A stretch of 62,412 nt of DNA, the filler included, from Dugesia japonica (taxonomy: Eukaryota): the NCBI GenBank assembly GCA_001938525.1. It is 4 parts of 4 records of this genome, joined end to end, with 100 filler letters (N's around TTAATTAATTAA, not from the genome) between each part and the next. Parts side by side here need not be neighbours in the genome. Positions count along the whole stretch, not along the records: positions 17,748 to 30,718 come from MQRL01580461.1; 3 more parts are not named here. One strand, given 5' to 3'. This document shows, in pieces, positions 1,661-61,232 of the stretch. Position 1 is the first letter of the stretch. Every line of letters starts with the position of its first letter. The notes beneath the pieces are model-generated. The model saw only the letters and a list, made by a program, of their open reading frames with translations. It made no database searches and was not told the origin of the DNA. The position numbers and the translations under genes are program-made.

Positions 1661-4099
1661 TCTTTAATTTTCGTTTATGTAAATTAAAATGTTAATAATT
1701 TTGATATGAAAAACTTAGTTTTTTTTCTAATTTAACTTGATCATATTTGATTTAATTAATTTTATATTAAAAGATAAATAAGAAACAGATAGAAAAAGGA
1801 AAGAATAATAAGAAATTATTGTAATCATTATATAAGAAACTTTAAGTTATGTACATAAATAAATGAAGATAGGTGTGTTTCATTTTAAATTATGAAGCTA
1901 CTTTTATATTTTTATAAGCTGAGTCATAAAAGAAATCATTTTTAAATTNATTTTATTTATTTTGAATTATGTTAATATTTTATCAAATCTTATATAAATG
2001 TCTTCTATCTTATGTCCACTGGTGATTATTATATGTGGTAGTTAATTATTTATTATTCTTTTAAATTTCATTTGAGATTTCATTAAATTAAAAGCTTCAA
2101 TCAAAATGTTGGTTTATTTCTTTTTATTTCTTTATCTTGTGTTTTTAATTAATTAATTTTTTTTATTTATTAAACAATTTTTTATAGTTAAATTTTTTAT
2201 AGTTTAATTGTTTTTTTCTAATAATTTTGTTATTAATGAAAGAGTTGAAGATTAGTGACATGCGTNATTNTTTTCCAATTTTATAATAAATTATTTGAAT
2301 AAACTCAGAAAAATAAATAATAAAAAAAATTAGAAGTATAAATTTGATTTTATTGTAAAAATTGAAATTTATTGCAACCAAGGTAATAAATCAAAATATG
2401 CTGTTGAAAAGTCATGTGTCAGAATCATGCTAATAAGTTCATTTATCATTTAAAATTAGTCAGAAAATTAACAGCTTCTTTCTTCTTCACGGACATTGAA
2501 TTTTTTTAATTTATGGCTAAGAATCTAGAAATATTTTAGTAATATTATTTTATATTTTTCATTATTCGTGTTTAAATTAATTAAAATAACTGTATTTTAT
2601 ATAAAACGTATATCTTGTGAATTGTATGTCAAAGTAGTAGGTTAAACAGGATCATCATTCACATCTCTTAATCTAAACTTCTCTTAATGTAAACGTGTCA
2701 AAACTGACACTTTTGTCGCCAATTTTCACACCTTTAAAAACAATTAATTTCACGTATTATTTTTTATTTTTATCCATGTGAATATTTACATCTTAATTTT
2801 TTCTATTGTTTCTTAAGCGTGAGAAATTTAAAACCTAATTATTTCTTATTAACATATAAAAATTCACATATAAATGTTTATAACCGTGAATAACCCAAAC
2901 CATGATGTTTTAAATATTTTATTGAAGAGTAGTATTCAAAAAATTTTATTATTATTGTTAATGTCAAACTTGATATTGTCGGATGCACAATGAAATGATG
3001 AACACAGTGGAGTAGTTTTAAATTTAGTCATTTTAAATATAAGGATAAAAAGATTTTAGAGATTTAAAATATTTGAAATTTTAAAATATCGAGATACATG
3101 AAAATCTTTCCATTACACTCATCAAGTCTTTTATACCACTTAATAGAAAATTAAAAGTAGAATATTACTTACTTAAAAATATTTAAATACAAATATTTTC
3201 CTAACAATGATATCGATGAAACAAAGTATTTAGATCTACGGTATTCAGTTCCAATATTTTGAGTTGAAACCTTCATCATCGGGATGAAGAACAATTTAGT
3301 AGGTAGTGGCGCACGGCACCACCTAAATTTATCAATTGTAAAATTGCAATTAAAACGAGTAGATAACAAACTTGAGAAACATAACTGATATCAAAATTTT
3401 AATCTCGTGTGTTAGTCACAAGTTATTAAAGATTTAAAATTTTAATATTTAAAAATCGTGTCCAGCCTCCAATTTTTATCATCAAGACTTGAATTTGATA
3501 CTATTGAGTAGGCATTTAAAAATTATATATCCATTGTCTAAAGAATCGGTCTCGACAAATGTATGCCTTACTAGAAAATCAAAGAAGAATAAACAAAGAA
3601 ATTTTAAAAAATATTTTAAAAAATATTTTACTATTTCTTAATCAAAATGCATCAAATCTGATATTATTAGAATGGTAATGAGATGATAAAGACATGTTTT
3701 TAAATCATTTTAACGAAGAGGTAGCGATATATTTGCTATTTAAATTTTAAAAATGAATAAATGTTTTATTTACAAATTGTAAATAGAAAAAATGTTATTT
3801 AAAAAAATTATGAAAAATTTAAAAGTGCATTTGTGTAGCTTCTATGTTGCACATGTAATATTTAATCAAAAAAATGAACACTATTATACGTTTCATTTGC
3901 TATTTAGTGATGTCATTCTATGTAATTTTTGAAATTTGCGTTGACTTCTATTTAATTTATTAAACGTTTCACCGACTTCTAATTAATTCTTTAAACATTT
4001 TAATGACCTATGTCATTTTCGAATTTGTTTAGCAACATCTATGTAAGACAACACACACAAGACAATTATAAGAAAAATTTATTTTAAACACGCGTTTTT

Positions 4100-6952: not shown

Positions 6953-7124
6953 CCAACTAAATACACAGGAATATTTAAAAAACAGTAACGTATTGCATCA
7001 TATTACCTAATATGATGCAATTTTTAAATTGCCAAATAAATACATTAGGATTATGTTTCGTTACATCACTAATCCTGGGGGGTACTACATGTGTGCTGTT
7101 CTTTACTGCTACTATCTACCTACT
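6953..7124. mobile_element. Polinton-like terminus, same family as 30819-31160
   Basis: Shares ccaactaaatacacaggaa and atgtgtgctgttctttactg with the 31 kb copy; ends ctactatctacctACT. Confidence 0.6.
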
Positions 7125-18237: not shown

Positions 18238-19310
18238 AGTAGGGGGATAATGGCGCACTGGCACAATTTGGCAATGGGCCAAAATTATAGCACAATTTTT
18301 AAAAGCAGTTATCGCGGGACACCCTCCCCCAAGTGTCCCGCTCGAAAACACATTACGATTGTTCTATGATTTTTGTGCTATGATTTTTCGGTTAGTTTTT
18401 TTTTCTAAGATTTTTGGAATCAAAATTATTTTGATCGGATCAGTTTTTTTTATCCTGAAGGTGCGTGTGTGTATTTTAAAATTTTAAAATTTGTGTGCTT
18501 GGTTTGCTAAGGGAGATTTAAAAAAGTAGGTCAAGTTGAGTTTGTGTGTTTATGTGAGTGTGTGTGAAAGAAGGGATTTGGACTCGAGGAATAGCTGGAG
18601 ATCTTGGAAATAATTTTTTTACGATTTGATTGTGGATGGACAAAATTCGATCTATATATTGTCTAAAGAACTTATGGGGTGTAATGAATGAATTTTCCTA
18701 GAAGGGTAGTGGCGCACTGGCACAATTTTATGAGTAATATTGGGTGATTTTTTTTGGGAGGCTGTAGGTTTGTATGTAGTTGATGGTATTGGTTGGTTGA
18801 CGGGTTGTGGAAAAGATAATGTAATGGAGAAGATTTTGTGTGTCGAATGTGCTTTGATATTTTATTATAAGGGCTTCAATTTGTTTGGTTAAAATTTTTA
18901 AGTAGTTTAAGTGTGCAAAACGTTTTCGCGAGAAGGAGAGTGGTATGGGTGTAAAGAGAGTTAATTATCGGATATTATGATATTTATTTGACGTTTTTCT
19001 GCCGGGCAGATGTGACTAAATAATGTTTTGGAAGTTTTATATTTTTTACCCACGTAACCTATTATTAAGGTACCCACCAATTTATTTATGAGTGAGATGA
19101 GTTATTACTCACAACCTTGAGTAAATACCCTATTTTTACCAACGTAATGTGTTACCGCCATCCCTACCCTTTACTATTATTGAGTTGGGTAATTTTTATT
19201 ACCTATCTACTCACTATCTATATAAGTGGGTAGCTCGAAAACATGTTATGAGTTATTACCCACAACCTTGAGTAAATATACAGTATATTTGGCAGGAAAT
19301 TCAATTATTT
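18238..19310 (+). repeat. Left TIR of element A (~1.07 kb)
   Basis: Colinear reverse-complement similarity to 23384-24556. Confidence 0.9.
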
Positions 19311-19355
19311 CAAAAATCTGCTAATGATATGCAACTAGCAATCAAGTCAATGTTT

Positions 19356-19850
19356 AAACCAGATTTACACCAAAAAAAGACAATGCTGACATTTTGGTGG
19401 TCTATACCTGGAGTCATGCATTTTTCTTAGTTAGAAGAAGGTCAAACGTTTACCTCAGACAAATACTGTTCTGAAATTGAATTATTGTACAAACCTTTAT
19501 GCATTAAACAGCCTTTATGTGTCAATAGGAAAGGAATCATCCTCTTGCATTATAGTACCCAACTACATGTGGCAAAGAAGACGTCGACAGACTTAAAAAT
19601 TGAAACTTTGCCACATCCACCATATTTGCCCGACTTATCTCCGACAGATTATCATTTTTATAAGCATTTTGATAATTGTTTGGTAACAAAATCATTGCTG
19701 ATCGGAAGGATGTCAAAATGGCCATATCCAAAATCATAGACTCCAGAGAAAAAGATTTATTTGCTAAAAGTATTTTGAAACTAGTTTCTAGATGGCAAAA
19801 AGGTGTAGAATCTGATGGTGACTATTTTACTTAAATAAAATTTGATTTAT
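19356..19850 (+). mobile_element. Mariner transposase 3' fragment within element A
   Basis: KPDLHQKKTMLTFWWS, LPHPPYLPDLSPTDYHFY, SRWQKGVESDGDYF. Confidence 0.9.
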
Positions 19851-19876
19851 TGGACTTTTATTGATTTTGTTATCTT

Positions 19877-20269
19877 TTACGTAATCGGACATTTCATATG
19901 TGACAATCTAATAGTATCAAAAACTAATTTAATATCCGTACTTTCATATTCACCACTAAAATATGAAAGTCTCTTTAAACTTTCCTGATTTTCAAATAAT
20001 AAACTGTGGTATGCAATATCACTAGTAAAGACTAAAACATTTTTTTTCGATAATTGAATTATTGTTAATAATTCATAATCAATCCTAGATTGACTGTAAA
20101 TCGGCATGGCTGAATATACAAAGGTGAAATTCATCATGGCAACTTCCTATCTACCATCCATGTAAATTGGATTTTGAAGCTCAACAATGTAATTACTAGC
20201 AGTATTATTTGGAAAAAAAAGATGACTACTAGTACTAAGTAAAAGCGTATAGAAATTATTTGATTTCAT
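19877..20269 (-). pseudogene. Polinton minor capsid (penton-like) N-terminal remnant
   Basis: MKSNNFYTLLLSTSSHLFFPNNTASNYIVELQNPIYMDGR*EVAM matches FYxTLPSxSS..FPxNTxSxF..LxxPI.L.G.WEV. Confidence 0.7.
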
Positions 20270-21313
20270 CTGAATTTCCTTCCTGATTGACTATTTGTGT
20301 TGGTAATATCCAACCTGGTTTTTCGTATCCATACCACTTTACATAGTATTGTTTATTCTTTACTGATCCATTTGATTTGATTATTGTTTCTATTTTATCT
20401 ATCTCTGGTGGTGGAATGACTTATAATTCTTGCTCATAGAATTTTCCTTGCATTATATTGTCATCATAATCTTTAATAACATACATGACCGGATTTTGTT
20501 TCATGTTGACTTTTGTTATTTGAAACCTTTTATCACTCCAATTACTATTGAAATTCTTGATAAAAGGTGAAGCTGAAATTTCTGAGATTCTCACATGATC
20601 GCCAACTTTATACTTTGGTTTTTTATTTGCTTTTGAATGTTCACGCGATAACCATAATTTTAATTGATTATTTGCACTTACATTAACTGATCTTGCTACA
20701 TTTAATCCCTTATGGCGAGAATGATTGTAACTATGAATAAGTTTCGGTATAATATTTATCCAAGTCTTAATATCAACATGTACAAAGTATTTTTTCAATG
20801 CATCTCTCAATGTGTGATTAAATCTCTCTACATGTGCAGCTTTATAGTGAGAGAATACACTATAATGGTTTATGGATAGATGAAGTTGTTTTACCTTAGT
20901 ATTATAAAATTCCTTATCTAAATCCGTTTGTAAATTATGTGATGTCCATTTTTAAACATTGACTTGATTGCTGGTTGCATATCATTAGCAGATTTTGATT
21001 TAACAGGAACAGCTCTTGCAAATCTACTGAATACATCGATACATGTCAAAATATACTTGTAACCTTTATTAATTTTCAAATACGGAATAATCTCCATTAG
21101 ATCCATTTGCCATAAATCATCAATACCATATGTTTTATATGTTCTTGTTGGAAATCTTTTCCACATCGGCTTGTTCAAACTGTACGCTAGCTGTAGACAT
21201 AACCACCTTTTCATCTTTCTTTTCTTTTTTTGAGTTGCTTTCATCAATTTTTCTACTCCTCGAAAAACTGCTGAGTTTATTAGATCCGTCCAAATTGTCT
21301 TTAGTTTCCCCAT
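20256..21313 (-). pseudogene. Polinton retroviral-like integrase with C-terminal chromodomain-like region
   Basis: GIDDLWQMDL, YKYILTCIDVFSRFA, KAAHVERFNHTL, KPKYKVGDHVRIS, GKFYEQEL, KQYYVKWYGY. Confidence 0.92.
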
Positions 21314-21405
21314 TACAACAATTCAATGCAAATTTTGAGTCAAAAGTAGGTAATGATTGCAATTCCCCCATTATTTATTAATATATTAGTCAAAAGCGTA
21401 AATTG

Positions 21406-21728
21406 ATTATTTGAAATGAGTTAAGCCTAACGCGGCCAATACAATTGATAACAATGCTGTTGTTTTTCCACAACCTTGATTATTTCATATTGCTTTCTTC
21501 ATCAATCTCCTATATTTTGTATTTACAAGCGATAGTAAGATTTTTATGTTTTTTCAACGTTTCCTTTTTAGCGTTTCTCAAATTTACATTACTAAGAACA
21601 ATAATTATAATAATCTCAAGTAAATCATCCATGAAATATGGTGGAAATGAGTCCAAAATTCTCATTCTCATTAATTTTGAGGATTTAATCAAAGCAGTAA
21701 AAAACGGAATACTTCTTTCTAATTTCAT
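21406..21728 (-). pseudogene. Small conserved Polinton basic protein with hydrophobic C-terminal helix
   Basis: MKLERSIPFFTALIKSSK...DDLLEIII.IVLSNVNL...LKKHK...TALLSIVLAALG; homologue at 48582. Confidence 0.65.
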
Positions 21729-21759
21729 TTTTATTTCAATAACAAACAAATACTAGTTA

Positions 21760-22003
21760 ATTGTTTATAATGATATCTATTGTCCATTCATTAATCCCAT
21801 TTTTTCCAGTACTTTTTGCAAGTTTTTTTAAACTTATTCAATTGTTTTTTCTTATTTCCATACGTTTTCTTATGAGATTGTTTCTTATGGGATTTTTTCT
21901 TATTAGGTTGTTTCGTCTATTTTTTCAAAACCAGCCTTTTCCGGTGTTTAACAACATCACCATCAGTAACTGAATCAACTACAATTTTCTTAAACTTTGC
22001 CAT
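21760..22003 (-). pseudogene. Lys-rich small Polinton protein
   Basis: MAKFKKIVVD...KKQLNKFKK; homologue MAKFTKVIVD...NQLNKFKK at 48309. Confidence 0.65.
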
Positions 22004-22019
22004 TTTAAATAATATTATA

Positions 22020-22211
22020 AAAAGTACTTGTTTTGTTTAAATACTGTGATACCATTAAGGTTCAATATATCTGTTCTCACCCTACAATCATGTGGACATT
22101 GTTGTGTAAAGTCAAGAAATAGATATCCATGTGGTTTTCTGCTGTATCTTGAAATGTTGGGCTACTAGGCCAAACAATTTGATAGACTGCATCATTTCTA
22201 AATTTTTCCAT
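22020..22211 (-). pseudogene. Packaging ATPase remnant with large internal deletion
   Basis: MEKFRNDAVYQIVWPS joined almost directly to GYLFLDFTQQCPHDCRVRTDI; both ends match 47669-48284. Confidence 0.8.
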
Positions 22212-23383
22212 CTTGCGTTTTCTTTATTAATTCATAATTTTTTACATTGTTTATAATTGAAAGTTAATGCAGTATGTATGTAATATGTATGCAGCACTAG
22301 TGCAACACACATACACTGAAAATCATGTGACTAAGAATTTTTTATTAAACAATAAAATTCAGATGCTACACAGATGCAACACATAGGCAGCATACATGCA
22401 TTAAAAATCACATGCCTGTTAATTTTTAATAAATGCAATAGGTATGCAACTGAGATGCAACTGAGATGCAACTAAGATGCAACACAGATTCAACACACTT
22501 AAACATTAAAAATCACGTGCCTATGATTTTTAGACTGCCCATCTCATGCAAAATATAGAGTCTCCACATGTAAAATATCAAGACTGCCTCATCTCATATA
22601 TAAATATAAAGTCTTTTCAAAAGAATTTTAATTAAATTAAAAATTTCTCAAAAAATATATTTTTTTAAATTTCCCGCCGAAAATAATTTTTTAAATCTCC
22701 CTCCAAAAAATATTTTATTCAAAATTTTTATTCATGCAACACAAAAGCTGCATTCATGCAACACACAATCATTTTAGCTAAAATTTACTTTAGACAACCT
22801 TTAGACCGATTTTGATAGCAAACTCAAATATAATTTCAAAACCCGAAAATTATCACCCGTCACCCATTCGGTCGCGATTTTCATTAGAAAATTACATTTT
22901 GACGCACACACAAGCACCGTAACATAGGAATTACTAAACTTTTTTTAAGTATAACCTGTGTCCCATGTTCCTTTTTCATTCAAAGCAAAAATCATCTAAA
23001 TCCAAGAAATTGCAATACTGTTACTAAATAACTGAAATCTGAAAACACGTCACTGTAACCAACAAGAACATTTTTGTAAAAAATTATCTGTCATTTGATA
23101 CAGACTTAAAAACTCTATTCAAATACAACATTGAAACCCAATAAAAATAAAAAAATAATAAAAAAGATTAAAAAAAGATTAAGAAAAAAGATAATAAAAG
23201 ACAGAGGACATAAAAGAAGAAGAAATTTTTTTTTATATTTCCCGCCAAAACAAATTTGAAAATAAAATTCAAAAATTTTTTTTTTGAATTTTCCGCTAAA
23301 TTTATTTGTTAAGTAAAACAAAAAACAGAGTCGTGTGGTTAATAGGACAACATGCTATCACTGTTTTCTTTAAAATAAACAAA

Positions 23384-24556
23384 AATAATTGAATTTCCTG
23401 TCAAATATACTATATGGGTATTTACTCAAAGGTTGTTTGTCATAACTCATAACATGTTTTCGAGGTACCCACTTATATAGATAGTAAGTTACACAACTCA
23501 ATCATAGTAAATGGTAGGGATGGTGGTAACACATAATGAGTAGAAAAATATTACTCTACACGTGAGTAAATTAACCATGACCTTGAGTAAATTACACAAC
23601 ACAGTGAGTAAGTTTTAACCACTCCCTTATATAGATAGTGATTAGGTAGGAAATAAAAATTACCCAACTCAATTAAAGTAAAGGGTAGGGATGGCGGTAA
23701 CACATTACTCAAGGTTGTGGGTAATAACTCCACTCACTCAAATATAAATTGGTGGATATTTCGATAATATGTTAAGTGAGTAAAAAAGAATAAAGATTTC
23801 AAAACCTTATTATGTCACACCCGCCTGGCAGAAAAATTTCAAATAAATATCAAAAAATCTGATAATTAATTCTCTTTCCACCCTTACCACTCTGCCCCTC
23901 CGGAAAACTTTTTAAACACACTTATACTACTTACAAATATTGACAAATCAAATTGAAGCTCTTAATTTCAGAAATTAAATCATAATTGACATCGAAAAAA
24001 TTTTCCATCTCATTACCTTTCAAACAATCCATCTCCCAACAAAATCCAACTACACCCTAAAAACCTACAGCCTCCCTAAAAACATCCCACGATAAATCAT
24101 ACGACTGTTCTGTGGCACCACTACCCTTCTATTAAAATCCATCCATCCCACCCCATAAGTCTTTTAGACAATATATAGACCGAATTTTTGTCCAATAACA
24201 ACCAAATCTTAAAAACTTTAGAAAAAATATTTGGAAGATCTCCAGCTCTTCCTTCTTGTTTTTTCCTTCTTTCACACACACACTCACACATACACACAAA
24301 CTCAACTTCACCTACTTTTTAAAAACCTTTTTAGCAACCGAAAAATATAAATTTTAAAAATTAAAATTACATACACTCTTTCGGGGTCAAAAAAACTGAT
24401 CCTATCAAAAGTTTTTTTACCCCAAAAAATCTTAGAAAAAAAGAGTCACGGTAATTATGTCACAATCGTTATGTGTTTCTTGGGATAACTGCTTTAAAAC
24501 TGTGACTGAATTTTGGCCCATTGCTAAATTGTGAAAATGCGTCACTATCCCTTACT
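23384..24556 (-). repeat. Right TIR of element A (~1.17 kb)
   Basis: Reverse complement of left TIR, with an extra internal repeat unit near 23550-23740. Confidence 0.9.
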
Positions 24557-28350: not shown

Positions 28351-28489
28351 GCAAACTTTTCAAATCAATATCGTTAATTCAACACTTTAAAATTTAATAC
28401 CTGAAATTAAATTTTTTTTAATTGAATATAGGCATTGGATCACCCCCACTTGACAAAGAACTTTTATAACAAAGAGCATAAGTCATAAG

Positions 28490-28850
28490 TATGACTCATC
28501 GATGACTAGAACAAAGACAATGACTCATCTTTTTTATAGATCATGACTCATCGATTTAGTAGAACATGACTCATCGTTTTTATTCAAATTTTTTATATGT
28601 CAGTGATCCAGAATCCACGATTCTGATTGGTTGAAAATATAAATGATGACTCATCGATTTAGTAGAACATGATTCATCAATTTAGTAGAACATGACTCAT
28701 CGATTTAGTAGAACTTGACTCATCGATTTAGTAGAACATGGTTCATCGTTTCTCTGGATCACCCCCCCTAACAAAGAAAAATTTTCTAGATCATGACTCA
28801 TACATTTTCACGAACTTGACTCATACATTTTCACTATCATGACTCATGAA
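28490..28850. promoter_or_regulatory. 23-bp tandem array carrying TGACTCA (AP-1/TRE) sites
   Basis: Unit ATGACTCATCGATTTAGTAGAAC; 10 exact TGACTCA and 2 one/two-base variants; CTGATTGG (CCAAT box) at ~28623. Confidence 0.7.
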
Positions 28851-29007
28851 ATTTTTTTTTATTTTTTTTATTTATTTTTTTATCTTTTATTTAAATTTTT
28901 TTTAAAAATTTTTTTAAACAAATTTTTTTTTAGAATTAACACTTTTTTTTAAGGTTAACATTTATTTAAGAACAAAGTACAACTTATTAAAATAAAAAAA
29001 ATCAAAT

Positions 29008-29309
29008 TCATGGAATTCGTTCTAAAATAATGTCCCTCATTACCCAGTATGGACAGGGATTGGTTAAACACATTGATAATATTTCAAATTCGCTTTCGAA
29101 AAGGTCTAAAACTCTCTTGATATCAATCAAATCTTTTTCCAGAACGTAATGCCAATATTCTTCTTTTTCCAACAATTTGGATTTTCTTTCGCATTCTCGA
29201 TGCATTTCATTTATTATTCTTCTTGCAAGATCTGGGAAAAAGAATAAATAAATAATAATAATAAAAATTTACCTCTTTCGGATATTTCTTTTCCATTTCT
29301 TAAAAGCAT
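29008..29309 (-). CDS. Two-exon 86-aa microprotein beginning MLLRNGK
   Basis: Exons 29309-29273 and 29231-29008, 41-nt GT-AG intron, open frame MLLRNGKEISERDLARRIINEMHRECERK...LERIP*. Confidence 0.7.
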
Positions 29310-30005
29310 TTGAAATTATATGTGAACAGTAAAATAAATTGTTTTATCTACAAATTTGTTGTTGTAACACAACCTAACCCAATTAATTCAATCAATCACC
29401 AATATTTATTTGCTTTGTTTAACTGGCTACTGAATTGCATTTGAATTGCACTTATATTGTTTATACAAAGAAAAACCAATCAAAACATGATAATAATCAA
29501 ANNNNNNNNNNNNNNNNNNNNNNNNNNNNNNNNNNNNNNNNNNNNNNNNNNNNNNNNNNNNNNNNNNNNNNNNAAAGCAAAGATATTTAATAAATTATCA
29601 CTATTTTAACATGCAACAAACTTTCGGTTTAACAAAAGATAATGTTAGGACATTCGTGGTAGATTACTGAAAACCTTCAGAATTTCATGGAATTAAAATG
29701 AAATTTCTCTAGAGCTCAATTGTATATATGTTTCAAGTAATTTTATTTATTTTATTTTATTATTTAATATTTTCATTTAGGAACCTGTGTAGATACAACG
29801 ATCTGGAAAATTCGTGACATATTGTAAATGTTGTTATTGTAATAAATGTTATTATTTATAATTGTTTTGTAAAAAGTTAAATATCTATAAAAATTGATAA
29901 ACCCTCAAGTTAAATTAAATAAAAATTAAACCATATTAAATAAAAACTTTATGACAAATGACTAACAAAATAACTATATAAAAAAACAAATTTTAACAAT
30001 AAAAT

Positions 30006-30307
30006 TTATTGATTTACACTAATTATTAAGTCTTCCAAAAGTGTAACTCTACATCTGTAACTCTCGCAATGAGCATTAATATAAATCTTCTTGTAATATT
30101 GAACAAGAATAAACTCGATTTCTTCTTTTTTGAGCACGATTTTCCGTCGGAATAGAATTATCGCAGTAATATCTAAAATAAAAATTATAAGAATGAATAA
30201 TTTAAAAATTAAATATTACTTTTTTCATGAATAAGGTCCTCCTGACCATCAAAATCGGCCGATTCTACACCTGTTCTTCTGAATTTTTCAACACGGATCG
30301 AATTCAT
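30006..30307 (-). CDS. Two-exon 84-aa protein of unknown function
   Basis: Exons 30307-30220 and 30172-30006, 47-nt GT-AG intron, open frame MNSIRVEKFRRTGVESADFDGQEDLIHEKNITAIILFRRK...CESYRCRVTLLEDLIISVNQ*. Confidence 0.65.
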
Positions 30308-30475
30308 TTTTAAAATTAACAAATGATTAAAATGAAATATGTAATGTGTTATATGCAATTCTCTGTTTTACACAAATCGACCAATTAAAATCGTTTAATG
30401 AAAAAACAAGTAATTATCAAACAACGAAGTGCCTTGTTATACTTACATTCATATTGCATGATTCATGTTGTGAAA

Positions 30476-30718
30476 TTAATCAATAAAATTATACAAATCA
30501 GAAATTATATTATCCACATATCCTTAATAGTGTAAATCTTTTATACCGAGTATTACAATTTTGCGTGATGAAAATACTTTTACACATACAGGATCATACT
30601 TTGTAAGACGTAATGCTGAAAATAATTCTGGTTCAAACCAACATTTTGTTATTATTTTTTATAACTTGTCCCAAATTGATTACAAGTATTAATGATTGCA
30701 AACGAATATCTTTAATAT
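30476..30718 (-). pseudogene. TBP-like gene, C-terminal repeat (copy 2; 5' cut by spacer)
   Basis: IKDIRLQSLILVINLGQVI / KCWFEPELFSALRLTKYDPVCVKVFSSRKIVILGIK. Confidence 0.85.
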
Positions 30719-30818
30719 NNNNNNNNNNNNNNNNNNNNNNNNNNNNNNNNNNNNNNNNNNNNTTAATTAATTAANNNNNNNNNNNNNNNNNNNNNNNNNN
30801 NNNNNNNNNNNNNNNNNN
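30719..30818. other. Artificial assembly spacer
   Basis: 44 N + TTAATTAATTAA + 44 N. Confidence 0.95.
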
Positions 30819-31160
30819 AAAACAGTTACCGCTTAAAAAGCCTAAAAAAGTTTCCCAACTAAATACACAGGAAAATTTAAAAACAGTTAATCTTATTATA
30901 TAAAATTTCACCTATGAAATTAATCTCATGACATAATTTGTGTGCAAAATTTGTTCACCGCCTATTTACATTAGAAAAATTTAAAAACAGTTATGTAATA
31001 TTCTCGCGACAAGATTAAATACATAATGTAACGCACACTGATGTGTGCCGCCGCCTATTTACATTAGAAAAATTTTAAAACAGTTATGTCATAATCCGAT
31101 TGCGTCGGGGGGGGGAGGTACTGAATGTGTGCTGTTCTTTACTGTCACTATCTATCTACT
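30819..31160. mobile_element. Polinton-like terminus
   Basis: Internal repeats gcctatttacattagaaaa..aaaacagttatg; ends cactatctatctACT; same family as 6953-7124. Confidence 0.6.
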
Positions 31161-31190
31161 TCATTGGACTGTGAATCAGTCATTTCCTCA

Positions 31191-31482
31191 CCAATAATAT
31201 ATGTTTATTTGTACTTGTGTCTGGCATTCATCAGAAATGTCATCATTTGTCAGCATATCAATTATTTTCTCATCAATAATGACATCATTAGTTTGTGCAT
31301 CAATAATTTTTTCGGTAATAATATCATCATTTGGTTGAGTATCGTTCATGTCTTCCTTGGATGTTGCATATATTCCATCAATATCTATATCATTTTCTGG
31401 AAAATCATCTACTATTAAATAATTATTTAGATTAATATTAGTTATTATTACCTTGAACCGATGAAGTTATATGTTCAACCAT
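31191..31482 (-). pseudogene. Two-exon acidic-repeat small gene, truncated or decayed at the 3' end
   Basis: MVEHITSSVQ|VDDFPENDIDIDG...DMNDTQPNDDIITEKIIDAQTNDVIIDEKIID with ~40-nt GT-AG intron. Confidence 0.55.
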
Positions 31483-31601
31483 ATTGTCTATAATATATTT
31501 TACAAATGCATTACTAATCAGTTGCTAAGTTTATATCAATCCTTTGTTTATTTTACATTGTCGTTGCTTAACATATATTTATGATGCACACATGGATAAT
31601 T

Positions 31602-34600
31602 CAGTAGTGTATTGGGGCCGTAACGTTCCGAAACGGCGTTTCGGTACTTTTTTAAAGTAGGGAATTGTTTTTAATTTCAACTGAAAATTAAATTTTAATT
31701 GGCGAATTTGAAAAAATATTTCAAAAAATATGTTAATTAATAGAAAATATATCTTGCTTTGTTTCTTTTGTCTTTTCTCAAATAAATAAACAGCAAGTAT
31801 TCTGAGTTTGATATATTACATACCATACTATCAAACTGTTGGGCTAGAACACAATAAAAATGATTAAGCAATTAAAATTATGAATGAGAAAAATAATAAA
31901 GAACAACGAAAGAACTCGTAAGAAATGTGATCTGGACCAGAAAATTGATAAATATGTATAAAGTTATCATTATTATGTAATTATTTTTATTATTATAATT
32001 ATTTTGAATTATTTCAAAATATCGAAAAATGAAAAGCAGCGTTGAAGACCCATTTTTAGTGAAGAAGAAATAATAAATAGATGTATTAAGAAATAATGAG
32101 AGGATAAATAATAAAAATAAGCTACTATAATATAATAATATATTAAATATACCCTATTTCATTACTATAACCACGCTATTTAGCGTTTGATATTAAGTTT
32201 AATTAAGTTCAAAATTAACAAAATTTGTGAATCACCCTTAACCAGACAAGGAATTCCAGTAGTAAATAAAATCAGTAATCGGAGGTCACACGAGGTGACT
32301 GATGACAAGGGATGTAGTTTCGAGTTGGTGTGTCGAAATTGGTGAGACACAACTTACCAGAGATGAAGACTTACTGAGAAGAAAGCGATCAGAAGCCCAG
32401 ATGAAGAAAAACCTGAAGAAGATTCGCTGAATAATAGAGAGCTAAAATTTCATGATATAGATGGTAATAAAACCAGACTTCTCGAATGAAAAAAGGAGAA
32501 TAATTCTTAAATTTTTTTTATTGATTATCAAATTTTTGTGTGCATTACAAAGATAATTTTAAGCTAAGCTTAATTTGGAGTTCGACATCCCCAGAGAAAA
32601 GTAAAATTTATATTTGTTAATTTCAAGTTTTATAAAATCTTTTTATGTAAAATGATACTGAGTGTCACAAACATCGACAGATCGTGATCCCATGCCAAAA
32701 TTTTGTGTAGTAAAACGAGAATGAAAGATTATTGATTGAGTCGAGAAATTATGCTGCAAATTAAGACTATTAAGGAAACGAATGTAATCCAAAATTATTT
32801 TTGAGTAAAACGAGAATGAAAGATTACTGATTGAGACGAGAAATTATTCTGCAAATTGAGTAAGAAAATTTTATATATGAGTTATCATTATAATTGCAAT
32901 TGAATAAATTACTATGGTTTTTCATTCTAATTGGATTTTTATTAAATTTTTGTTGGAAATGGTTTAGTGAAATTCTTACCAAGGCTTCGAAGTGGTGAGA
33001 ACTAGAAAGGATGGCTTCTCTAGTGGACATCTTCTCTGGTTCGTATTACAAAAGGCGGGGAATTAGAGCAGATAGGCCACAGTCCGAAGAAACATTCACT
33101 GATTATTGTTATGATAATTGTTTTAAATTACATTTAATATTGTTAGCAGAAAATGAGATAATGTTTATTTAATTTAGAATGACAGCATATTTTAAACCGC
33201 ACATATCGCTTGTGCTCTCAAAGGATGGTGGTACAGGTACATTTTGGACCCCCTGAAGAAACGCAGTTGCGTTGTTAGATGACCAAAGCTGTTTATGAGA
33301 AAGAGAAGACAGAGATGCTCTATAAAGGTGGGCAATTGGTGGCGACATTTTGGAATTTGAAATTCCTTCAACTATTCCAACAGAAGAACTCGCATCTCCG
33401 ACAAGGACTCAAAATAGTCAAAAGAACTGCAGATGCGCTAATAAAACAGCGAATATAACATGGAGTTCTACTAGGTTAGCTCGAGAAACAGTTGTTAACA
33501 ATGGCATCCGCGGACTCAGAGGAGTGTGAATTGTAGCCAATGCTTATTATCGTGAAGGTATAATCTGTGGGTGGAGAGAAATAAATGATTTGCTTCGAGG
33601 ATTTTGTTATTTGCATTATTTGCCACAATTCGTTAAGTAATATAATTTTAACGTGATATGTATGTTACTTTGTTATTTGAACATTCTATAACTGCAGAGG
33701 CAGTAATAAGTTTAAATGATTTTTTTTCGATTTAGCCGTGGTAAAAGCGTAAATGCGGAGTAAATATTTATTACAGTAGTTCTCCAATAATTTTGTGTCC
33801 TTGATAAACGGTTTAATCTACAAAGATTACTTCCTATAATTGATTATGATCACTTATCTCAATTAAATCTATTATAATTAAATTATGACTAATTTATTTG
33901 TAGTGAATAAATTTACTGAAGAGAAGATGTTGAAATGGATGTAATGCAAGTGCAACAACGGTGGAATGATGATAAGCCCGATTTGCGGAACGAAATTCTA
34001 CAATTAAAGGAACAGCTGAACAGGTCTTCATCTTCGCACAGTTATAGAAGCAGGAGTTAACTCTTCAGCAGGCCAACCGCCTTATGGCCAAGGTGATTAA
34101 GATTTATGCCGACCGTAAGGTTACAATGTTCCACACTCTGCGAACATTATGCTTAAAATACCGAACAACCGAAGAATCGACCGAGACCATGGAACAGAGA
34201 GTCGATCTAGATGCCTAAGTCGGATGGCGAACTTGTAAATAGTTAAATAAATGGTAGTGGACATTAAAAGTGTGTTTTGAATTAAGATTTTATTTGTTAA
34301 AGTTAAATTACGAGATTAAAATTTTTAACTGAGCATGTGAAAATTATTACTAATTCGAACAAGTAAGACGCGATACCACAAAGTCACGATGAATCCGTGG
34401 AATAGAGGGACATGTCACAGAGGTGACACAAATGGTTGTGGTTTTTAGGTATGCCCCTAGACATGACGAGGAAAATATTAAAATGAAAGCGATATCCGAG
34501 AATTTACAGAGAGAATTAAACAACCAAATCCTAAAAACCCAACAAAACTACAAACTTCAACAATGGCGTTAAGGCGCCAATGCGAACCAGTGAACGTACG

Positions 34601-41837: not shown

Positions 41838-42769
41838 TTCAAAAAATATAATGAAAAAGTATGAATTAAGTACTATATCAAATTCAATAGAAGATACACA
41901 TGCAAGGTTTTTTTAAAAAATACGTGAATTTAATAAATAATTCATTAGTTTCCTTAAAGTATGTATTATTGCATTTCAATGATTTGATTAAATTAATTTA
42001 TGAACTAAATGTATATTTATTGTATTTTATTTATTTATTAATAAAATCTGTATGTATTTATATGTCTAAATGAAATCTTTGATTATTTGAATGAAATTAA
42101 AGTATATTAATAGTAGANNNNNNNNNNNNNNNNNNNNNNNATAATGTATTTATGAAATTGATGCGTGTTTCAAATTGATGCAGTTAAACAAACTAATTAT
42201 TAATTACATTCTAAATTTTAAATTATTAGTGACATATATTGGAATTATTAATTAAAATTTTTTAAATTCATTGTTTGCATACAATGATAACGTTTCAAAT
42301 TCATTTTTAAGAAAAAATATTTTACAAAAGGATCAAATTGTAATCAAAGATGAAATATTACTAGAAGATAACATAACCGTTTTTGGTAATACATTTTGAT
42401 TATTAATATTTTAGTTATTACTTATTTCTTTTAAGATGATATCAAACTAGTACTGGAAGAGATAATTCCAGAGTTTGAAGAGAAATCGAAATCATGGAAA
42501 CAGAATTAGTATTTAAAAAACAAAAATGTTTTCCAGTTGTATATTCTCGATAAAGAGGATAGATAATTGATCTTTTACAATTTTTACAATTTTAATGATG
42601 AATTCATGTAAGTTGGATCAGTTATATCATAAGGGAGAAAATTATTTTGGAAAGATTTCCATGATTGTGTATGTGGTTTTAAATTATAGTTTGTTATTAA
42701 ATTAATGTTAGTTTAAATAGTATTTATCTTTATTATTGTATTTATTAATTCAAAAAAAAATTTCTTGTC

Positions 42770-42888
42770 GGGGGGGGGTGAGTCATGATCTATGAAAACG
42801 ATGAATCATGATCTATAAAATCATTGTCTTTGTTTTAAATGTTCTTTGTCTAAGGGGGGTTGATCTCGTGCGCTACTATCTACATACT
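42770..42888. mobile_element. Polinton-like terminus, family of arm D
   Basis: Ends gtgcgctactatctacatACT; contains TGAGTCA and gacaaagaac/acaaagacaatga blocks shared with 28437-28530. Confidence 0.65.
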
Positions 42889-45086
42889 CTCATTTATAAA
42901 ATCAAACGGTATCGCTAGCTCAAATAGTCGACGCTTATACTAGTTTTGGTACATTCGATATCAGAATTTAAGCTCTCTCCTCGTAAGTACATCAATGTGC
43001 AAGTGTCGTTAAAGCCTGGATTATAGTTTGTTAGAGATAACCGTAATATGAGTGTACATCACCTTGATTTAGTGTTTATATATGTTAGTCCTTTAAACTT
43101 CTCTGAGAGGTCTCTGACTTATTAATTTTTTGGCTTCTCAGGCATTACATATTCAAGAGTATTTGTATTCAGCTATACATTACTCTTATATTGGAAGGTG
43201 AAAATCATTAAAAGAACCTCGTCCTTTTATCTCATTACTTAGACAACATATCTACGCTATCCAACTGAATCATTTGGTTTATTGTTGGTGTTTCTCTGGC
43301 TTATGTTAGGCTTATACAACATGCACTGCAAAACAATTATTAATCAGTCTCCAGCAATCACTCCAATGAACCCACCAAACATACACCAATTACAATAACA
43401 ATGGCAAGAAATAACATCCTTCAACAAACTTGTAGCACAAAACAACCACAAATATCAATTTAAAAAAGACTAACATCAACAAAACAACAAACTCTCAATA
43501 ATCATGATCCCAACAATGAACAATCAGAGCAAATAATCATTCATTCTCAGATTAAATCAAACAATCCAAAACAAACTACTAATTATAACAAACAAATCTC
43601 CAGATTATATCAAACAGTCAAAAGAACCAATTTCTATTAACCTTGTATCCTGTACAAAGATACCAATATTTTGTGTTTGACAATATTATTATAAACCTTT
43701 TTGAATTATGTGATTACAGTTATACAATTTGTGTAGTCATTTTAATTATGNNNNNNNNNNNNNNNNNNNNNNNNNNNNNNNNNNNNNNNNNNNNNNNNNN
43801 NNNNNNNNNNNNNNNNNNNNNNNNNNNNNNNNNNNNNNNNNNNNNNTAAGACATTAAAACAAATAGTAATAATATAAATTTTATTTATTTTAAAATCTTG
43901 TAAATATTTTTATAAAAATTTTATAAATCAAAAATGTAATTTAAAAACTTATTTATATTATGATTTTATTTCATTTAAAAAATTAAATATTTTCAAAATT
44001 ACGAAAATAAACTAAGGAGTAGATCAAAAAGTTTCAATAATTTTTTGTTAAAGTAAAAAAAACTTTTTTAAAAACGTTTTTTATTTTTTCCAAATTTTTG
44101 ATTTTATCTTCTTCAGGATTTGTCATTTTTATTTTCAATTTCATTTGTTAAAAAATTTCAAAAAAAAAACATACTATATTTATTTTCTCAAAAATTAAAT
44201 ATTTCTTGAATGAAATAATTGATTTTGTCAATTTCAGTTTAGAAAAATATTTCATTTTTATTTTTTAGAAATTTTAATGTTTACGTTGCGGTATTTTAAC
44301 ATAGTATAAATACCAACACGAATTTCAGTTTATTTGCTTTTTCATTCTAATCGATTTGATCGTATCGCCTGAAACAGCTATAACTGAATAATCTGTCATT
44401 GTGAGTTGTCTATTCTTTTATTTGAATTAATTATTGAATTTTAACTTGCTATCATAATATATTTTATTAGGTGAATTTTACTTTTATTTAATATAAGAAA
44501 ATTGTATCAGTTATTTACAACTGTATATTCTATAAAATCAACAAAATAAAAATATTTCTGATCCGATAAGGAAAGGTTATATTAACAGCGAAGTCATTAT
44601 TACTATAATAATTAACCTAGCTTCATATTAAGTTTATTGTCATAGCGACGGTCTATTTAATCATTTGTTAGAGGATTTAATCTGCTGATTGGAAGCCCGA
44701 GCACTTAAATTAATGAAAATTGAGATGTTTATTGCGGCCATATTAACATGTATTGTTCAATGATTAAATATACTTTAAAATAATTACCCAATTAACTAAC
44801 TGACACTGAAACTTTTCAGTTAAACAAAATATTTTAAGCTTATAAATTTTATTAAGCTTATAAATTTTAAGCTTAAAAATCTTAAGCCTAAACTTAATTT
44901 ATAGGCCTAAAATTATCTAGTAATCTTGGAATTCCCTATGACTGACACACAATTCACTCACTGACTTAATCAGGCGTGTGGACATTTAGGTTGATATATT
45001 TAAGATAAACTAGGTATTCACTCATTGACTCACTCTAGCGTTGAAGTACAGATAATAATTTGTATAAGTGTGTTGGAATTAGCAAA

Positions 45087-47184: not shown

Positions 47185-47595
47185 TTAGTTTTTCATAATT
47201 AAATTATGCAAATCAGATATCATAACATCGACTTGAGGTTGTTTTCGATTTTAGACTGGATTGAATTTTATAAGTCGTAACCCAGGAAATAATTTAGATT
47301 CATACATGCATTTAGTTCTTCTCGCTAAATCATATAAATTGATTGAATATCTCAAATTTATAGCGACTGTAATCGACTGTAGTTGAATATCTTCGATATC
47401 ATATTGTAAATGTTTTCTTTTCAAGGGTCTTTCACATCCCATGATTCTAAATCTTCCGGATTTGAAGAATACTAAAGTATATTTTCCAGTTTTGTTGAAA
47501 ACATGCGATTGTCTGCCAACTGGAAAATTTATTTGTCTTGTAACCTCTTGTGAAACTTTGCCTCTGTAATTAATATTTGTAATTATAATTATGTC
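47185..47595 (-). pseudogene. TBP-like gene (copy 1; last beta-hairpin deleted, no clear ATG)
   Basis: ITNINYRG...YTLVFFKSGRFRIMGC...IQLQSITVAINLRYSINLYDLA...MYESKLFPGLRLIKFNPV; cf. TBP LIFSSGKMVCTGA, IQNMVGSCDVKFPIRLEGL, YEPELFPGL. Confidence 0.85.
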
Positions 47596-47668
47596 AATAA
47601 ATTTTTAAAAAGTTAATATATACATATACATAAACAATAATTTAATTGATACAATAAAACAAACAATA

Positions 47669-48284
47669 ATGGAATTAAGAAATGATGCTGTTTATCAAAT
47701 TGTCGGCCCAAGTAGAAGTGGAAAAACTCTTTTTGTGTGTAAATTATTCAAATCAAAATTATTCAAATCAAAATTCAACAAAATATATTGGCATATAGGA
47801 GCTGATGAGGAATATGTATTAACTCAATCCGAATTCTGTGATATAAAATAAAAATTATAAACGATTTTGATGAGAATTGAAGCAAGAGATTAACTAAAGG
47901 TGATGTGATTGTTGTTGATGATTTATACCAGGAAGCAAACAAGGAAAAGAACGTTAACAATTTATTCACCAAGATATCAAGACATTGTGATGTGACTGTA
48001 TTATTTATTACTCAGAATCTATTCCATCAAGGAGGTGGACATAGAACTCGCAATTTAAATGTACAATACTTGGTTCTATTTAAAACTTCAAGAGATTAAA
48101 GAGTTGTTGATTTTCTTGACAAGTATATCCAAACAATAGACAATTTCTTTTGGACTCTTTCAAAGATGCTACAGTAAATCCGAAGGGATATCTTTTTATA
48201 GACTTTACACAACGATTTCCAGATGAACTTAGAGTGAGAACTGATATTTTTAATCCAATCGGTGTTACCGTATATAAACAATAA
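47669..48284 (+). pseudogene. FtsK/A32-like packaging ATPase
   Basis: Walker A GPSRSGKT, Walker B IVVDD, LFTKISRH, FITQNLF, GYLFIDF, LRVRTDIF. Confidence 0.93.
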
Positions 48285-48581: not shown

Positions 48582-48780
48582 ATGAAATTTCAACAAAGTC
48601 TTCGGTATTTTAATATATTACTCAAGGCTTCTAAAGAGTCTAGAGCAAAGATGATGCAATCATTTCCATCATTCGTTGTTGATTATTTACTAGGGATTAT
48701 TGTAAACATAGTGCGTGGTTATGTAGTTATAAGCAAAGTTAGAAAATAAGCATTGGAAAAACATATTAAGTCATTGCATA
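48582..48780 (+). pseudogene. Small conserved Polinton basic protein, 3' truncated
   Basis: MKFQQSLRYFNILLKASKESRAKMMQSFPSFVVDYLLGIIVNIVRG; homologue of 21406-21728. Confidence 0.65.
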
Positions 48781-48789
48781 CCGACTACA

Positions 48790-51178
48790 AGCGAGAAATT
48801 TTTATTTTTGATTTCACACTATGGAGACGTAAACATAAAGTTTATCGATTCATATCAGTTTATTAATAGTTCATTAGATGCGGCTGTTAAAACAATTCAA
48901 TCAATTCCATTAAAATCTAAGTAGTTTAATGACAACAGAATCATCAAATCAAAAGGAATTTTNNCATATGATCTTGCTACAAGCCTGACAGTGTTGGAAG
49001 AAACTGAATGTATGCCACCAATATGGAATGGTGTCAACGAAGAATCGTATCAGAAGGCTCTGGAAATGTAGACTATTACTGGATGCAAGAATTTACTGGA
49101 TTACATGAAGATTTATCTAAAACTAGATGTATTCCTGCTAGCCAACTTTTTTCAACAATTTCGAACCAAGTTGCTAGCACACAACGGACTGAAACCATTA
49201 ACATTCTTTGGAATTCAAGGCATGAGCTTAACATCAGCATTGAGGACCCTAAAGGATCCCATCGAATTGCTTACANACAATGATATGTTCACATTTTTCG
49301 AGGGAGGAATCAGAGGTGGACTTACATTTGTCAACAAACATTATGTGATATTGGACGAAGACACTGAGCTTTTGTACATCAATATAAATAACTTATATGG
49401 ATGGGCATTAAGCCAGAAATGACGATATATGGATTTTCAATGGATACATACAGGATTAGAGCAAATATTGGAAGAGTGTAGAACATCGGATTTAGAATCA
49501 TTACCATATGGTTACACAGTAGAAGTTGACATTGAAATACCGGACGAGTTACACTATTATTTAAGCGATTTACCTGTTGGAGCCGAACATCAGAGCCCAC
49601 CTGGAAGTAAGGTAAAGAAGATGTTATTAACACATATTACCAAACTGAATTATGTTGTACATTGGCGATTATTACAACTGTACATGTAACTAGGTGTTAG
49701 GATTGCTAAAATACATAGAGGTGTAAATTTCATACATATATATTATATTTTCAAGAAGTATATAGATGAAAATACTGATCTAAGATCTAAACGTTTACAT
49801 CAGATCTAGATAAGAATTATTATAAGCTTTTAAACAACAGCTTGTATAGAAAAAAATATTAGAAAATCTAAAGAAAAGGATGAATCTCGGCTTGTGCAAT
49901 TCATCCAAAAAGCTTATTACATACGCTTTGAAGCCAAGCTTTAGGAAAACAATTAATATATTAGGTTGGAACATAAGTTCGTAGCGTTTTTAAACAGAAG
50001 TCATTTAACATTAAAAATAGAACAATATTTTGAATAAATATATATACATATATATATTTTCTGAAAGCTCTTGTTTGAACACATCAATTAAAAGTAAAAT
50101 TGATTTGATTTTATTAAAATTAAAATTATTTAATACTAATTTCAGATGAAAGATAAAACAATGCATTTCAGGCATATTATGTTATTTTATTATAAGAAAG
50201 GTAAAAATGCTTCGGAAACAAACAAAACAATTTGTTCCGTCTACGTAGATCATTCTGTAGCCGAAAGCATAGTCCGTAAGTGGTTTTCGCGGTTCAAAAT
50301 TAAAAGTTTTGGGTTAGAAGATAGAGATCGTTGTGGTAGGCCTTCTATTGTTGATGATGACCCAATCAAATCAATAATTGAAAATGATCCACATGAAACN
50401 ACAAGATCCATTCCAGAGAAACTACAATAATCTCATATGAGTGTCGGAAGACATTTGAAGAAACTGGGATGCATTAATCGTTATGATGTTTGGATACCTC
50501 ATAATTTGAATAGATAAGGATTTTTTTGCGGTATTGTTGAATATGGATAAAGTTTGTCTCAATTATCCTAGCTATAATGGTCAAACAGTGTTGGACTTGA
50601 GTAAGTTAAGAATTTATCAGTTCCAATACACCTAGCTTGAGAAATATAGGACAGATGAAAAATTTATCATAAATATAGTGGGAAGAGATACCGACCGCTA
50701 TTTCCTGGAGGTTAAAGGTATTAGATTGGAAAGATTGTTAAAACTGATGGTTCAGGATGAGTTGTTGGACACTTCAAATTATGATACAGAACATCCGCTT
50801 TACAACAACAACCTAAATTCAGTAGTAAGGAAATTCAAAAACAAAAGCAAGGGTGAGAGATACAAGGAATGGGGTTTTCTGAGACCGAAATTTTATAGTC
50901 GCCTTAGCGAAAAGACCAGCACGATGGCTAAGAGGATAACATTAAAGGATACCAACTTAACACACCAGTTGTATCTGGATTGTTACAATAACAATCAATC
51001 TGTATCAGTAGAACAATTTAGGATAGGTACAATAAACAACCAATTGTTTAGTTTTAAGAGATCAAAAATAGCATTAACCAACAATGATGAAAAGAGAGTA
51101 TGGACATACGAAAACACAAGTGTTCCATACGGGCATTGTAGTTTGACCGCAATAAATAAGACTTTGTATCAGCAATAG
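48790..51178 (+). pseudogene. Protein-primed family B DNA polymerase, 5' truncated, split by mariner
   Basis: KFIDSYQF, YLKLDVFLLA, GIRGG, NNLYGWALSQ, YKLLNNSLY, RDTD, FLRPKFYS. Confidence 0.93.
49961..50510 (+). mobile_element. Mariner 5' half (TIR + HTH) inserted at TA in pPolB
   Basis: TA|TTAGGTTGGAACATAAG; HFRHIMLFYYKKGKNASE, VRKWFSRF, WIPHNL; PolB resumes in register (KTINI|DKDFFAV). Confidence 0.9.
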
Positions 51179-51399
51179 AATGTATAGGTAATGAATTTAT
51201 TTGAACCTATTAAAAATGATTTTATTATATACAAATCAAACGAAGAATCTAAAAGAATTTACGTATTCCAACTAGATTTTATTAAACGGACATATATTGA
51301 ACTGACATTATTAACTGTTTGTTATTATACATAATAAATTTTCTCAAATGAGATTAGTGTCTTTATTTATAATTTTATTTTAATATTGTGAGCGATTAA

Positions 51400-61013: not shown

Positions 61014-61232
61014 TGTTCGCCAGTTACAATACCATCTTGACACATTAGATAATAACAAGCTTTTCAAATATTTATTATAAAATAATTAATTAATATTTAA
61101 ACAATATTGTCTTATTGTTACTATATAACAATAAGATAATATTGTTTAAATATTCATTAATTATTTTATAATAAATATTTGAAAAGCTTGTTATTATCTA
61201 ATGTGTCTAGATGGTATTGTAACTGGCGAACA
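61014..61232. repeat. Near-perfect 219-bp palindrome
   Basis: ~107-bp arms, 3 mismatches by eye, ~5-nt centre. Confidence 0.92.

Follow-up and report, generated by a model that had tools for sequence, protein, structure and literature searches.

Positions 30476 to 30718 of the window (the whole stretch analysed here, 62,412 nucleotides of Dugesia japonica DNA from assembly GCA_001938525.1) hold the C-terminal lobe of a pseudogene for a small protein related to the TATA-binding protein (TBP), which we call mini-TBP. Our main reading, to which we give a probability of about 0.6, is that a conserved mini-TBP gene with a role at promoters is carried by a lineage of Maverick/Polinton-like elements, and that what survives here is a dead fragment of it. 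Its basis is graded. We are highly confident that the sequence is TBP-like and that its history runs through two subfamilies and purifying selection to decay, and it is likely that these virus-like elements carry their own promoter-reading factor. The copy itself is dead, non-functional and partial; its interest rests with its family.

Two broken copies of one gene

The stretch under study (copy 2, minus strand) was identified by tblastn, Pfam, the family profile and alignment. It sits at the end of a contig of its own (29574-30718), as an earlier note on this DNA had stated, bounded by N gaps at 29502-29573 and 30719-30818. The second gap is written as N44, a 12-nt linker and N44, a count that does not give its true size, and the 5' part of the gene is lost in it. 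The peptide quoted in the earlier note is made of real residues on the minus strand, but its dots conceal a frameshift and an in-frame stop. Specifically, IKDIRLQSLILVINLG is read from 30716 and KCWFEPELFSALRLTKYDPVCVKVFSSRKIVILGIK...VDNIISDLYNFID in frame from 30718, that is, in two different frames; a frameshifting deletion at 30650-30668 (minus strand) shortens the spacing between aligned blocks to 19 nt, from the 33 of an intact relative; and a TAA (minus strand, read 30526-30524) precedes the terminal stop at 30478-30476. The E-P-E loop, an acidic stirrup of the TFIIB-binding type, is intact. On its own the fragment scores below the Pfam TBP (PF00352) cut-off of 22.9 bits (18.5 bits, E 0.0018), and 2 of its 15 near-invariant positions are changed, against a mean of 0.23 in intact members, only 4 of 119 of which have as many changes.

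The other copy (copy 1, 47185-47586, minus strand) is also a mini-TBP pseudogene. It lacks a start codon where the family has one, contains a stop at 47253-47251 and has lost 48 nt internally, and it passes the Pfam cut-off (29.8 bits, E 5.6e-7). Four of its 19 near-invariant positions are changed (mean 0.29 in intact members), a number reached by none of the 119. Of the 69 nt that an intact relative has at this place, copy 1 retains 21, and the loss spans a strand hairpin that copy 2 keeps; to this extent copy 2 does supply what copy 1 lacks. It was said to supply the missing C-terminus, and this part does not stand: copy 1 keeps its final helix (8 of 12 residues identical to copy 2), so the missing part is internal.

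That copy 2 is a second, diverged TBP-like copy is borne out by direct comparison within the window (tblastn E 6.6e-5) and by a profile of intact relatives, which finds copy 1 at iE 2e-37 and copy 2 at iE 2e-23, with the next best place in the window at 0.46 and thus no third TBP copy there by this profile. Across 144 aligned nt the two copies share 70% identity. A DNA-only alignment scored 119, against a maximum of 95 in 300 shuffles; one unrelated AT-rich window scored 120 in the same alignment, so the DNA alignment alone is weak.

Each copy has its own closest relatives among intact proteins. Copy 2 is nearest to P0001 (46 of 57 and 12 of 16 residues identical) and copy 1 to P0012, P0013 and P0010 (61-65% identity). 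A tree of 63 rows, from a quick IQ-TREE search with two outgroups and with copy 2 filling 48% of the columns, assigns copy 2 to a clade of 12 rows (SH-aLRT 95) to which copy 1 does not belong, and unites both copies in a 17-row clade (SH-aLRT 99). This agrees with the claim that the gene is present in at least two subfamilies.

The same note had held that the gene was conserved under selection before these copies decayed, and the codon comparison supports purifying selection on the lineages that separate them. In the 48 codons that both copies share without gaps, 21 differences are synonymous (on 31.6 sites) and 22 are non-synonymous (on 112.4 sites), distributed 11/9/23 by codon position. The resulting pN/pS is 0.29 (bootstrap 0.17-0.48) and dN/dS is 0.14, the latter a rough value with dS close to saturation (pS 0.67). 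In simulations under neutrality, run with three kappa values, the medians were 0.84-1.16, and for every kappa 0 of 400 fell at or under the observed value. The note had also argued against a one-off capture; the evidence speaks against a recent, incidental capture, while a single ancient capture that was later fixed stays compatible with it. Copy 2 is further evidence that, within one genome, at least two subfamilies living side by side retained the gene under selection.

Abundance separates the copies further. With contigs mapped at an 80% threshold, 1746-2735 contigs per run mapped to copy 2's contig, and depth summed over contigs (not a copy number) was 1e5-5e5 over the copy 2 gene; the same runs gave 1.6e3-7e3 for copy 1. 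Single-copy reference depth is about 10, as given by pieces of 646 nt (1 difference, depth 11) and 775 nt (no differences, depth 9) in runs X1/X2. This shows two separate multi-copy populations, of which copy 2's is much larger. Nearly all of the mapped depth differs from copy 2 at the listed gene positions, so many of its changes are private. In RNA run X24, 288 reads fall on copy 2's contig; 208 are less than 90% alike and none is at least 99% alike, so the reads derive from other copies.

The intact family and its gene neighbours

The piece of copy 2 retrieved five intact proteins of 144-152 amino acids (73-79% identity), and an alignment of these five retrieved 481 proteins at E<=0.001, for which the details rest on the best 120 of 481. 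A representative search with copy 1 gave 81 proteins; a word-seeded search with copy 1 alone gave no matches, in a setting where the copy 2 piece and the alignment succeeded. Our alignment (A2) comprises 119 near-full-length proteins with a median length of 150 aa, and excludes fragments, long outliers and P0138-P0198. Intact relatives score well above the Pfam TBP cut-off (P0001 47.1 bits, P0012 61.1 bits), and the 35 distinct PDB sequences matched by the family profile are all TBPs or TBP fusions. Scans of viral contigs found no member of the mini-TBP family; one of them gave four giant-virus loci only.

A two-lobed TBP saddle is the predicted fold of the family. The AlphaFold (AF2) model of intact P0001 (pLDDT 95.9, pTM 0.84) aligns with yeast TBP in VIA over 148 residues (Z 13.2, rmsd 2.8), and 38 TBP entries rank ahead of the first unrelated fold (Z 6.5). 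According to the accessible text of PMC12529657, four intercalating phenylalanines and TFIIB-contacting acidic residues are features of TBP. Among the 119 aligned proteins, F41 and F116 are invariant and F100 is kept in 99%; by sequence register, the first of the four DNA-wedging sites is a proline in 98%, with the other three kept at 99-100%. The acidic stirrup of the C-lobe for TFIIB is likewise conserved (E96 in 96%, E98 in 100% of 119), and no part of the protein is better conserved across the family than its concave DNA face. For these positions we assume both a mapping of mini-TBP residues onto yeast TBP and the roles of the surfaces so assigned. The N-lobe is where the protein is reduced: its spacers have 22 and 20 residues, about 8 and 13 fewer than the 30 and 33 of two canonical giant-virus TBPs, and its basic helix H2 is missing (the P0001 model has no helix of at least four residues between 51 and 65). 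The C-lobe spacer, at 31 residues, equals that of the same two giant-virus proteins. The intact form is thus a conserved, reduced TBP-like protein of about 150 aa and not a canonical TBP, two of whose defining features fail in it.

Cellular and archaeal TBPs (PF00352; PDB 7o4i_O, 1tbp, 1mp9) share the saddle along the full length of the model, and the mini-TBP C-lobe is almost canonical, with its E-P-E-x-F-P loop, F-x-x-G-K hairpin and three wedging phenylalanines. Mini-TBP differs from them in being only 20-25% identical, in its size, in an N-lobe that is shorter by about 8 and 13 residues and has no long basic helix, and in the proline at the first phenylalanine site. Several positions on the DNA face are, in our assumed yeast numbering, polar in mini-TBP and hydrophobic in cellular TBP. 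The TBPs of giant viruses (Nucleocytoviricota) and mirusviruses are viral homologues too and are the top BFVD matches (E 7e-8). Those of L011 and L012, however, are canonical (184-186 aa), lie on a long separate branch and belong to viruses far larger than Mavericks. Separately, at L010:869-2566 and L013:9683-11380 we observed a giant-virus protein of 566 aa in which a TBP-like domain lies internally.

Copy 1 lies among Maverick genes. It is head-to-head with a broken A32-type packaging ATPase (47669-48284, plus strand; Pfam and profile), followed by the remnant of a pX-like ORF and then by a broken protein-primed PolB (48600-51178, plus strand; PF03175 E 2e-11, PF17906 E 7.8e-18), which is split by a mariner fragment at 50140-50600. 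A third Maverick fragment (19740-22255, minus strand) has a deleted ATPase, a basic ORF, a pX-like ORF and an rve integrase, without a TBP remnant. Outside the window, nine metagenome loci bear mini-TBP relatives, and in two of them (L001 and L004) the gene is beside a Maverick-type ATPase. The breadth of the family, together with these two A32 neighbours, accords with the claim that TBP is a stable gene. In both loci mini-TBP is upstream of the ATPase in tandem, so the divergent layout of copy 1 is not general. L004 continues past the ATPase with a weakly pX-like ORF (E 0.019) and then the start of an integrase; its 3' end matches window positions 21316-21092 (rve E 1.3e-7), which belong to a fragment separate from either copy, and the copy 1 element repeats its ATPase and pX-like neighbours. 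L002 shares an ORF with L004, as judged by eye. In the other seven loci, L003 and L005-L009 among them, no hallmark Maverick gene was found on contigs of 1-3 kb with unannotated neighbours. Copy 2's own contig likewise showed no hallmark gene, PolB and ATPase included. Past 30718 the earlier note predicts a divergent ATPase; 30819-33500, across the gap of unspecified size, gave neither a Pfam match at E<=0.01 nor an ATPase match. We saw no mapped contig with sequence past 30718, and capsid proteins and an adenain-type protease had no Pfam match in the scanned stretches.

Gene content and state of preservation resemble those of known elements. Mavericks, Polintons and adintoviruses also have pPolB, A32/FtsK ATPase, rve integrase and a pX-like gene, as well as AGT-type termini like the candidate ends described below, and Maverick/Polinton copies are mostly degraded, with core genes under purifying selection; the eight core genes of vertebrate Mavericks, in contrast, do not include a TBP (accessible text of PMC8502044 and PMC8097293).

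Several smaller observations concern these neighbours. After the integrase of the third fragment (19740-20420, minus strand) we noted by eye a chromodomain-like stretch and what we take to be a penton-like motif (20100-20250), with no relevant Pfam match. Directly upstream of mini-TBP in a GC-richer subclade (L005:137-646 and L006:116-631) there is a DEDD-exonuclease-like ORF, also seen by eye and with no relevant Pfam match, which is perhaps the 'MAEL' gene of adintovirus maps. Summed depth over the ATPase (47604-48206) is 5e4-1.4e5, about tenfold or more above that over PolB (48609-51221; 1e3-1e4); the abundant subfamily may consist of non-autonomous derivatives, or its PolB may be more divergent. 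Oligo-dT reads of X24 lean antisense over the same ATPase interval, and sense over PolB and copy 2's TBP.

A positioned word and a proposed role of mini-TBP

In the interval -55 to -20, the word TATAAAC precedes 11 of 21 non-TBP gene starts (positions -32 to -50) and 0 of 10 TBP starts, in a set of starts chosen by eye in which the matches span about six gene types and are not 11 independent cases. The best 7-mer averaged 2.9 under a random-window null and 3.7 under a shuffled null, and 0 of 2000 reached 11. In one gene type the word overlaps the last codons of the ATPase. TATAAAC also differs little from the canonical TATA box and includes a core of forkhead type, which means that host factors might be its readers. 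Of the 12 TATAAACA sites in the window, 4 belong to its Maverick fragments, where they precede genes of this kind or stand in the place expected for them. Of two scans for Mavericks without a mini-TBP gene, intended as a control, the one by ATPase gave no match and the one by pattern a single phage.

On these grounds we lean slightly towards a promoter mechanism in which mini-TBP would read TATAAAC and recruit TFIIB and RNA polymerase II. Host TBP or other host machinery would first transcribe the mini-TBP gene, whose own start is without the word; mini-TBP would then bind TATAAAC ahead of the packaging and structural genes, and the bound protein would bring host TFIIB and RNA polymerase II to these genes. 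Without an N-lobe basic helix, mini-TBP might, to judge from TBP structure, escape several regulators of host TBP. More tentatively, and at clearly less than even odds, this Maverick lineage may run a one-protein late-gene switch, made up of a 150-aa TBP without the host-regulator surface, a retained TFIIB loop and a private TATAAAC promoter. If true, no smaller viral module for basal transcription would be known, and the timing of virion genes in Mavericks would be accounted for for the first time.

An unlikely alternative keeps the same protein as a conserved Maverick decoy or competitor, sequestering host TFIIB or occupying host TATA boxes, with host TBP or a forkhead factor reading the word. 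The resemblance of TATAAAC to host motifs would suit a decoy, as would a TFIIB-type acidic loop kept while one phenylalanine and the N-lobe helix were lost. Against it stand the DNA face, which is the best conserved surface, and the word's presence before 11 of 21 neighbours and no TBP start, which fits an ordered programme. It is more doubtful still that mini-TBP is no transcription factor and instead binds or bends element DNA (at termini or an origin) for replication or packaging. The gene does adjoin the packaging ATPase in copy 1, L001 and L004, and replication initiators also have TBP-like folds (Z about 6), but the E-P-E loop is kept and the shared word lies at promoter distance from start codons. 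That copy 2 goes back to a cellular TBP paralogue, of which a retrocopy or duplicate landed among repeats and decayed, is largely refuted and very improbable: the lack of a hallmark Maverick gene on its contig or across the gap (to 33500) would fit, but it is 81% identical to a 149-aa mini-TBP of a family only about 20% identical to cellular TBP, has thousands of related contigs per run and nests in the tree with copy 1, which abuts ATPase and PolB.

Reading of a private word by a viral TBP has precedents, and viral TBP mimics are already known in herpesviruses and giant viruses; the Maverick mini-TBP family is barely described. In the accessible text of PMC12529657, beta- and gammaherpesvirus TBP mimics read a private TATT word. 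These mimics (KSHV ORF24, EBV BcRF1) pair a viral TBP fold with a variant TATA word before structural genes and have a polar DNA face; mini-TBP resembles them in its fold and DNA face and in the word proposed as its target. ORF24 is nevertheless a large multidomain protein in a six-member complex, with four phenylalanines and without the TFIIB acidic residues, whereas mini-TBP is a bare 150-aa core that keeps these residues. For Polintons, the only literature trace of a TBP that we found is an abbreviation, used once in the Fig. 5 legend of PMC8502044 (also in its preprint), from which the bearing element and family are not evident; annotation in supplements, Repbase or subscription journals may be missed. 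In the accessible parts of these sources, TBP/TATA terms had no matches in PMC11071296, PMC11161782, 10.64898/2026.10.13.758929 and PMC6431247, and matched only the reference list of PMC12220804. In the available text of PMC10675990, TATA-binding proteins are named for elements that have no polymerase, no ATPase and no jelly-roll capsid. Within the accessible literature searched, we found no description of how Mavericks switch on their capsid and packaging genes. In this context, a conserved, selected mini-TBP and a positioned word form a directly testable pair (one small protein, one 7-mer), and the protein is a naturally minimal TBP in which the binding of DNA and TFIIB would be uncoupled from the helix that host regulators use.

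Arms, termini and setting

The window is AT-rich and gapped (GC 14-38% per kb) and is filled with decayed mariner elements and others that we take to be gypsy and hAT-like. Around copy 2 there are two arms. Beyond the gap, a repeated arm (30819-31160, minus strand) ends at 31160 in an AGTAG-type, Maverick-like terminus; its direct homologue ends at 7124, and its link to copy 2 is a candidate only. An AG/AGT-type end motif of this kind is described for Mavericks in the accessible text of PMC8097293. On the other side, a TIR-like arm (28438-29031, plus strand) carries 23-bp TGACTCAT tandem repeats, and its inverted homologue at 42641-42865 extends to an AGTA-type terminus near 42890. The two arms (28438 and 31160) do not match each other and probably come from different subfamilies or nested pieces. 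The same neighbourhood has multi-copy sequence downstream of copy 2 (29574-30475, minus strand), with a decayed, apparently spliced ORF from 30307, and an apparently spliced short ORF for which no family was found (29005-29309, minus strand); a database search (Atlas) with ORF 29011-29268 gave no usable match.

Further AGTAG(A/G)TAG words at 3298, 7124, 19211 and 53512 are possible Maverick-type termini. The 23-bp tandem repeats of the TIR-like arm (28492-28855 and 42779-42837) contain TGACTCA and GAACATGACT, presumably an AP-1-like and a p53-half-site-like word, respectively. Apparent GT-AG introns of 40-50 nt occur in the short ORFs at 29005-29309, 30120-30307, 31188-31500 and L004:478-1015. 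At 18244-24551, a mariner fragment and the third Maverick fragment lie inside a 6.3-kb unit with imperfect inverted arms of about 1 kb (GGG...CCC ends); this unit may be an element of foldback or MULE-like type that has taken up Maverick DNA. Finally, 61014-61232 is a near-perfect 107-nt inverted repeat (97%) with a 5-nt spacer.
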